64,000 nucleotides of DNA, from assembly GCF_050920415.1 (NCBI RefSeq), contig NZ_CP169309.1. One strand, 5' to 3'. Shown here in pieces: positions 38,361 to 38,554 of this stretch. A model generated the notes under the pieces. The model had not been told where the DNA came from. It saw nothing but the letters and a program-made list of their open reading frames with translations, and searched no databases. Source of the DNA: Escherichia coli. Its GTDB lineage: Bacteria; Pseudomonadota; Gammaproteobacteria; Enterobacterales; Enterobacteriaceae. The translations under genes and the position numbers were made by a program. The first letter of the stretch is position 1. Every line of letters starts with the position of its first letter.

Positions 38361-38554
38361 TGTTATTGTCGGATGCGGCGTGAACGCCTTATCCGACCGA
38401 CACAGAGCACCGGACCCGTAGGCCTGATAAGACGCGACAGCGTCGCATCTGGCAATGTTGTTATTGTCGGATGCGGCGTGAACGCCTTATCCGACCGACA
38501 CAGAATACCGGACCCGTAGGCCTGATAAGACGCGACAGCGTCGCATCAGGCAAC
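38361..38554. repeat. Tandem duplication of a 97-bp REP/BIME unit (two near-identical copies)
   Basis: Copy 1 at 38361-38457 and copy 2 at 38458-38554 differ at only a few positions; each holds two REP palindromes (ggatgcggcgtgaacgccttatccgacc and gtaggcctgataagacgcgacagcgtcgcatc). Confidence 0.75.

Follow-up and report, generated by a model that had tools for sequence, protein, structure and literature searches.

The pepA-holC spacer of Escherichia coli houses a head-to-tail array of REP palindromes, described here within a window that comprises the whole 64,000-nt stretch of DNA analysed. The upstream gene, pepA (36833-38344, plus strand), encodes leucyl aminopeptidase and is defined by the open reading frame list and by the RefSeq annotation of a near-identical record. 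The downstream gene, holC (38605-39048, plus strand), encodes DNA polymerase III chi and is followed on the same strand by valS (39048-41903). The TAA stop codon of pepA occupies positions 38342-38344, the array begins 2 nt beyond it, and the array lies entirely inside the 260-nt spacer (38345-38604). Between the array and the holC ATG there is a right flank (38552-38604, plus strand) whose first ~25 nt are particular to the lineage of the window and whose last ~30 nt (ATATTTAAATCCACCACAAGAAGCCCCAT) are kept in every allele of the site, including one that carries a BoxC element.

Tandem Repeats Finder reports positions 38347-38553 as a single head-to-tail array with a period of 98, 2.1 copies, 94% matches, 0% indels and a score of 379. 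A repeat search gives 95% identity between 38347-38444 and 38445-38542, and in a lag scan of the array, identity reaches 94.9% at lag 98; across the remaining lags between 20 and 400 it averages 25% and peaks at 43%, which places the repeat far beyond chance. A sequence-only reading of this DNA had proposed near-identical head-to-tail units behind pepA, each with two REP palindromes, and Tandem Repeats Finder, self-comparison and a REP scan all bear this out. The period of 97 bp given there has to be corrected to 98, and the repeat starts at 38347, 14 nt to the left of the claimed 38361; the reason is a partial z2 arm of 9 nt (GCATCAGGC, 38347-38355) behind the pepA stop codon. When unit boundaries are set after the z2 REP, the two full units occupy 38356-38453 and 38454-38551 and differ at 5 of 98 positions without indels: 38356 (T in unit 1, A in unit 2), 38357 (G/A), 38407 (G/A), 38408 (C/T) and 38450 (T/A). 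Self-alignment of the array thus confirms the near-identity of the units, and the sequence example offered for their differences, cacagaGCacc versus cacagaATacc, was correct.

Each unit combines a 12-nt left linker, a y REP, a 16-nt linker and a z2 REP in the same order. The individual REPs were located by an ungapped Hamming scan against y and z2 sequences that we take to be the consensus of each type, and the y/z2 assignment is backed independently by the Rfam naRNA4 alignment and by the listing of the K-12 element as a BIME-2. The partial z2 right arm on the plus strand at the left end of the array has no partner arm; it accounts for the extra 0.1 copy and is kept in all Escherichia BIME alleles of the pepA-holC site. 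In unit 1 (38356-38453, plus strand), the y REP (38368-38401) is inverted and therefore reads on the minus strand as an iREP; it has 3 mismatches in 34 positions to the y consensus, aligns with the first hairpin of the Rfam naRNA4 model, and ends in the tail CGAC, the canonical tail being CTAC. The S-type linker ACAGAGCACCGGACCC (38402-38417, plus strand) lies between this CTAC-type y end and the GTAG head of the z2 REP (38418-38453, plus strand), which has 2 mismatches in 36. Unit 2 (38454-38551, plus strand) repeats this arrangement with the 12-nt inter-unit linker AATGTTGTTATT (38454-38465, plus strand), a y REP with the same CGAC tail (38466-38499; 3 mismatches in 34), the 16-nt linker ACAGAATACCGGACCC (38500-38515) and a z2 REP (38516-38551; 1 mismatch in 36). 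The y core of the units reads GTCGGATGCGGCGTGAACGCCTTATCCGAC in inverted orientation, followed by CGAC, and the z2 sequence, starting with GTAG, reads GTAGGCCTGATAAGACGCGACAGCGTCGCATCAGGC.

These parts identify the array as a y/z2 BIME-2, the two-unit allele of an already catalogued pepA-holC element. BIME-2 elements have been defined as z2 and y REPs in multiple tandem copies with a short linker, and the array agrees on every point: a y and a z2 REP stand in opposite orientation, the linkers measure 16 nt within units and 12 nt between them with no long L motif, the tandem copies (2.1 here) vary in number across Escherichia, and the position is extragenic, of the kind found at gene 3' ends or between co-transcribed genes. 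The REP scan and the Rfam alignment thereby uphold the claim of a REP/BIME array directly downstream of pepA. In its alternating y and z2 REPs, short linkers and tandem amplification, the array resembles the BIME-2 family of Gilson, Bachellier, Hofnung and of Espeli and Boccard (1997), and it also matches that family in a copy number that differs among strains, in the likeness of its tandem copies and in its presumed gyrase partner; it departs from the family only in that both y copies carry a mutated GTAG/CTAC tetranucleotide. In the catalogue of Bachellier et al., as used in Table DS3 of Sutormin et al. (2019), the K-12 orthologue has the entry 'BIMEs2 ... holC-pepA'. The features of K-12 NC_000913.3 at the site are CDSs only, with no REP feature. 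Both elements share site, orientation, the order y, short linker and z2, the left remnant TTGCRTCAGGC and the holC-proximal flank. They differ in that K-12 has one unit in a 159-nt spacer and the window two units in 260 nt, in that the window units carry 14-15 differences from the K-12 unit, and in the y tail (CGAC in the window, CTAC in K-12) and the linker (16 nt against 14 nt in K-12).

The number of units at the pepA-holC junction varies widely, as the sequence-only reading had anticipated, and cross-genome comparison finds from 0 to 4 units. Overall, E. coli spacers fall into classes of 133, 159, 257-260 or 353-355 nt. Spacer length was read from the coordinates of flank-only queries in evenly spaced rows sampled from 5,425 complete E. 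coli genomes; two samples were taken (combined n=116), with the top and bottom rows (best and worst match) of each left out. In this collection, which is skewed to laboratory and outbreak strains so that the frequencies are its own and not those of the species, three units in 353-355 nt are the most common state (25 and 27 genomes in the two samples, 45% combined), followed by a BIME-free spacer of 132-133 nt with a BoxC element (17 and 15; 28%), two units in 257-258 nt (11 and 11; 19%) and one unit in 159-161 nt (5 and 5; 9%). An exact search places the BoxC allele with its 133-nt spacer in 1,405 of 5,426 complete E. coli genomes (26%). This allele has neither a REP nor a REP remnant and carries instead the BoxC / PIT / TMECO intrastrand-triplex motif, identified from published motif tables; in E. 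coli 28Eco12 (extracted locus 496-628), for instance, the reverse complement of the motif is CCCTCTCCCTTAGGGAGAGGGTTAGGGTGAGGG. No BoxC copy was found within the 64-kb window. The 260-nt allele of the window was met only in strain MFDS1022581 among the genomes searched, and strain N96 has 259 nt.

Other Escherichia species carry 1-4 units at the same site, with arrays of 2-4 units in E. whittamii, E. albertii and a divergent species representative labelled 'E. coli'. The pepA and holC flanks lie far apart in only 3 genomes, and the 2 examined both carry the IS110-family element IS621 inside the BIME: CUVET20-416 (extracted locus 1967-3503), where IS621 sits immediately after the GTAG of a z2 REP, and GPEC403-625 (1871-3503). 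The spacers of these two strains differ by 96 nt, which equals one BIME unit. Among species representatives of the Enterobacteriaceae, 42 of 92 pepA-holC spacers contain a REP-type GTAGG/CCTAC motif, so the site is occupied by REPs well beyond Escherichia; their types are specific to the genus, as seen in Salmonella, Citrobacter and Pseudescherichia.

The alleles also record how units are lost. In the K-12 unit, y REP and linker come from unit 1 of the three-unit allele and the z2 REP from its unit 3, which amounts to a loss of exactly 194 nt (96 + 98). Similarly, the left edge of unit 1 is fused in the 257-nt OkiPb allele to the unit 2 body, with a loss of 96 nt, and in the 161-nt allele of EC42405 to a unit 2 of the N96 type. 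Such chimeric units demonstrate unit loss by in-register recombination.

Over a 24-kb stretch around the locus, the window is 100% identical to MFDS1022581 and 99.4% identical to N96, and the remaining complete genomes are ~97-98% identical. An exact identity of the window with MFDS1022581 does not hold over the full 64 kb, where NZ_CP169399.1 has an extra IS2 and 3 SNPs; the IS2 in the MFDS1022581 record (extracted region 19642-20870) is missing from the window, and gene coordinates from NZ_CP169399.1 need an offset of +1336 wherever the window position is below about 20966. With 400-600 nt of pepA and holC flank as query, 99% identity is reached by no more than one or two of 5,425 genomes and the others lie at 95.5-97.5%, which marks the lineage of the window as rare in the collection. 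N96 has a two-unit array as in the window, with an identical unit 1 and 3 differences in unit 2. Between N96 and the window, 14 differences fall in the last 400 nt of pepA (region 38144-38344 involved), the first 400 nt of holC are identical, and unit 2 with the right flank differs strongly; in N96, unit 2 and right flank are those of EC42405. The locus is a mosaic relative to N96, a pattern that suggests short recombination tracts ending within the array.

A first alternative holds that the array arose when one BIME unit was recently duplicated in tandem in this genome or clone alone. The two units are indeed each other's closest relatives outside the immediate lineage, with 5 differences between them and 8-15 from the units of other lineages, and they share the derived linker CCGGACCC and the y tail CGAC, changes that are specific to the lineage. 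Multi-unit arrays are nevertheless present in E. albertii, E. whittamii and other E. coli, and N96, at 99.4% identity over 24 kb, has both the identical unit 1 and the two-unit array. The units differ from one another by 5%, much more than the 0.6% that separates the window from N96. In addition, the single-unit relative EC42405 is chimeric and so represents a deletion product, not an ancestor, and the junction AATGTTGTTATT is common to the arrays of SCPM-O-B-8794 and nearly so to those of E. whittamii and E. albertii. A recent private duplication, as proposed by the sequence-only reading, is thus very improbable.

Gene conversion had been named beside duplication, and a homogenising of the units, whether through conversion or through re-duplication in place, fits the 5 versus 8-15 differences. 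The same tendency is seen in other arrays: mean distances within an array, compared with those to other arrays, are 5.0 versus 10.5 in the window, 2.0 versus 8.5 in E. whittamii, 5.2 versus 10.1 in SCPM-O-B-8794 and 6.7 versus 11.0 in E. albertii. Units that are closer within arrays than across lineages indicate concerted evolution, and the likeness of tandem BIME copies at one locus has already been noted in the literature. Because N96 shares the array, the homogenising event is placed after the split from most E. coli and before that between the window and N96; judged from these alignments, a single duplication or a very recent date does not fit it. Gene conversion may have carried the CGAC tail from unit 1 into unit 2, which fits the N96 comparison, and an EC42405-like recombination patch in N96 would explain the pattern equally well.

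A second alternative treats the array as part of a minus-strand gene for an HU-binding, nucleoid-associated small RNA of the naRNA4 type. The only gathering-level Rfam match in the pepA-holC spacer is to naRNA4 (RF02564; 38421-38496, minus strand), with 75 bits against a gathering score of 59.5 over the full length of the model, and naRNA4 has been reported to condense DNA with HU. The match covers the z2 REP of unit 1, the inter-unit linker and the y REP of unit 2, and the two hairpins of the model, which derive from REP325, align to the y and z2 hairpins of the array. Since it spans the unit junction, it exists only where there are at least two units. RF02564 itself is the y-linker-z2 module of REP325, so any array of at least two units matches it; the family being one BIME-2-like module, the match confirms the class of repeat and not a gene. 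Moreover, the match is antisense to pepA and holC, neither strand has a promoter-like site, the transcribed plus strand scores 54.8 bits and stays below the threshold of 59.5, and a 2026 preprint describes REP325/naRNA4 as having no measurable nucleoid compaction and no stable HU-DNA-RNA complex. A small-RNA gene at this position is therefore very improbable. The array is like REP325, which lies in the yjdM-yjdN operon, in being a tandem y/z2 array between co-oriented genes, and its inter-unit module scores above the naRNA4 gathering score. REP325 has six units and the pepA-holC array two; unlike in REP325, the strongest naRNA4 match here is on the non-transcribed strand.

The proposal that the array binds IHF leads to a third alternative, a BIME-1 / RIB / RIP-type element that recruits this protein at the 3' end of pepA. 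BIME-1 elements are defined in the literature by a z1 and a y REP in single copy with a long L linker, often with an IHF site. The array shares with them the y REP, the extragenic position and the placement at a gene 3' end, where y is paired with a second, inverted REP, and IHF binding had been assumed in the sequence-only reading. That second REP is a z2 with the long GACGCGACAGCGTC core, not a z1; the linkers of 16 and 12 nt leave no long L motif with an IHF consensus, and BIME-1 elements are known as single copies. The IHF consensus WATCAANNNNTTR has 4 matches in the 64-kb window, none of them within 38340-38610, and the K-12 orthologue is filed as BIME-2, not BIME-1. Since IHF sites belong to the L linker of BIME-1, the IHF claim falls, and a BIME-1 identity is hardly conceivable.

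At the RNA level, the four REPs are predicted to fold into stable hairpins of -19.2 (y, unit 1), -17.3 (z2, unit 1), -19.2 (y, unit 2) and -21.9 kcal/mol (z2, unit 2), with z-scores of -3.3 to -6.1. The z2 hairpin of unit 1 is weakened by the A-to-T change at 38450, which disrupts one stem pair. The whole pepA-holC spacer folds at -110 kcal/mol (z -6.95), and the REP hairpins retain an internal stem mismatch. Among 16 distinct units, the stems are almost invariant and the linkers and loops vary; RNAalifold finds 0 pairs changed on both sides in these units, and with invariant stems covariation neither favours nor contradicts a structural constraint. The scans of 38200-38750 returned no sigma-70-like promoter on either strand, with none for holC downstream of the array, and no intrinsic-terminator-like site on the plus strand; no T-run or U-tract follows any of the four hairpins. 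That the array is simply a duplicated intrinsic (Rho-independent) terminator of pepA has practically no chance of being right: strong GC-rich hairpins do stand right behind the stop codon, but no T-run follows them, the plus-strand terminator scan is empty, the hairpins belong to genome-wide REP families, and the lack of a promoter-like site for holC downstream of the array suggests read-through. The first stem begins 23 nt past the pepA stop codon, and REP-mediated translational down-regulation of pepA was considered and found unlikely.

The BIME-2 reading can be extended to function by analogy, all functional steps being carried over from K-12 and REP325 to the two-unit allele. It has been shown that BIME-2 elements are enriched for gyrase cleavage in vivo, mainly at y REPs and independently of transcription. 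For the K-12 holC-pepA BIME-2, Sutormin et al. (2019) mapped 2 gyrase cleavage sites with ciprofloxacin, 1 with rifampicin plus ciprofloxacin, 0 with microcin B17 and 2 with oxolinic acid, which agrees with the earlier statement that arrays of this class are gyrase targets. The two y REPs of the window would accordingly be preferred sites of DNA gyrase binding and cleavage.

REP325 stabilises the upstream yjdM mRNA, acts as a partly Rho-dependent attenuator before yjdN, and has no measurable effect on nucleoid compaction. This dual role is the best available model for pepA-holC. On that model, the four stable hairpins without a U-tract would protect the 3' end of pepA mRNA from 3' exonucleases and would, with some contribution from Rho, partially attenuate transcription that runs on into holC, so that the array may favour expression of the upstream gene without fully stopping that of the downstream one. 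Published REP effects are widely variable and context-dependent.

How the element changes its unit number may involve the REP-associated transposase TnpA-REP. This enzyme requires the GTAG tetranucleotide and the stem mismatch, and cleaves and joins BIMEs in vitro; GTAG-mutant REPs are neither bound nor cleaved by it. The array resembles the REPIN/RAYT (TnpA-REP) system, for which models of tandem amplification have been published, in its REP doublets with a GTAG head, the presumed substrates. Both z2 REPs retain GTAG. Unlike in that system, both y REPs have lost the tetranucleotide needed for binding and cleavage in vitro, reading CGAC (GTCG on the other strand) and not CTAC/GTAG, and by the in-vitro rules they should no longer be substrates. 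No RAYT gene was found in the 64-kb window, and a 151-aa transposase fragment (52278-52733, plus strand) was rejected as a candidate, having only an HTH_Tnp_1 domain.

Several other elements occur in the window. A second BIME-2 lies in the nrdD-nrdG spacer (62599-62682) as a single y-linker-z2 unit; having no inter-unit junction, it gives no gathering-level naRNA4 match. A solitary y REP (4055-4088, 2 mismatches) in the uxuR-uxuB spacer is abutted by an exact match to the IHF consensus (AATCAAATTTTTG, 4043-4055). Solitary z2 REPs are found at 8705-8740 and, in the convergent yjgR-lptG spacer, at 34244-34279, and a degenerate y REP is paired with a z1-like one between yjgM and rraB (43911-44004). 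Within the pepA coding sequence, a gathering-level Rfam match to Ysr276, a Yersinia antisense sRNA, scores 188 bits in antisense orientation (37391-37585, minus strand) and probably reflects the conservation of pepA itself. The window also contains the Mg2+ riboswitch of the mgtA leader (55568-55683, minus strand) and a tRNA-Leu (26295-26376, minus strand).

Taken together, the locus is very probably a two-unit pepA-holC BIME-2 whose unit number changes by recombination, whose units undergo concerted evolution, and which would act through gyrase and on mRNA. In this history, the element is an old resident of the pepA-holC site in the genus Escherichia. Its unit number rises and falls by in-register recombination or slippage between units, possibly with help from TnpA-REP, and concerted evolution keeps the units of one array alike. 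An essential signal is a less likely role for the element than that of a modulator or a tolerated genomic parasite. The site has no BIME in one quarter of E. coli genomes. Replacement by BoxC (26%) and the IS621 insertions inside the BIME of two strains imply that any function at the site is dispensable.

Copy-number polymorphism of BIME-2 elements between strains was described in the 1990s. As a textbook BIME-2 with a catalogued K-12 counterpart, the array matters little beyond its correct annotation. The locus is at the same time a compact worked example of BIME dynamics, with five allele classes in 5,425 genomes and with chimeric units, concerted evolution, BoxC replacement and REP-targeted IS621 insertions visible at one site. 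A further possibility, which we consider unlikely, is that the allelic series (BoxC, 1-4 BIME-2 units, BIME with IS621) forms a heritable dial on how much pepA transcription reaches holC-valS and on the survival of pepA mRNA. The locus could offer a natural setting in which to examine a recent proposal, namely that the ratio of upstream to downstream expression is tuned by REP arrays. If the dial reading were true, copy-number changes by recombination between units would constitute regulatory variation between E. coli lineages and not neutral noise.
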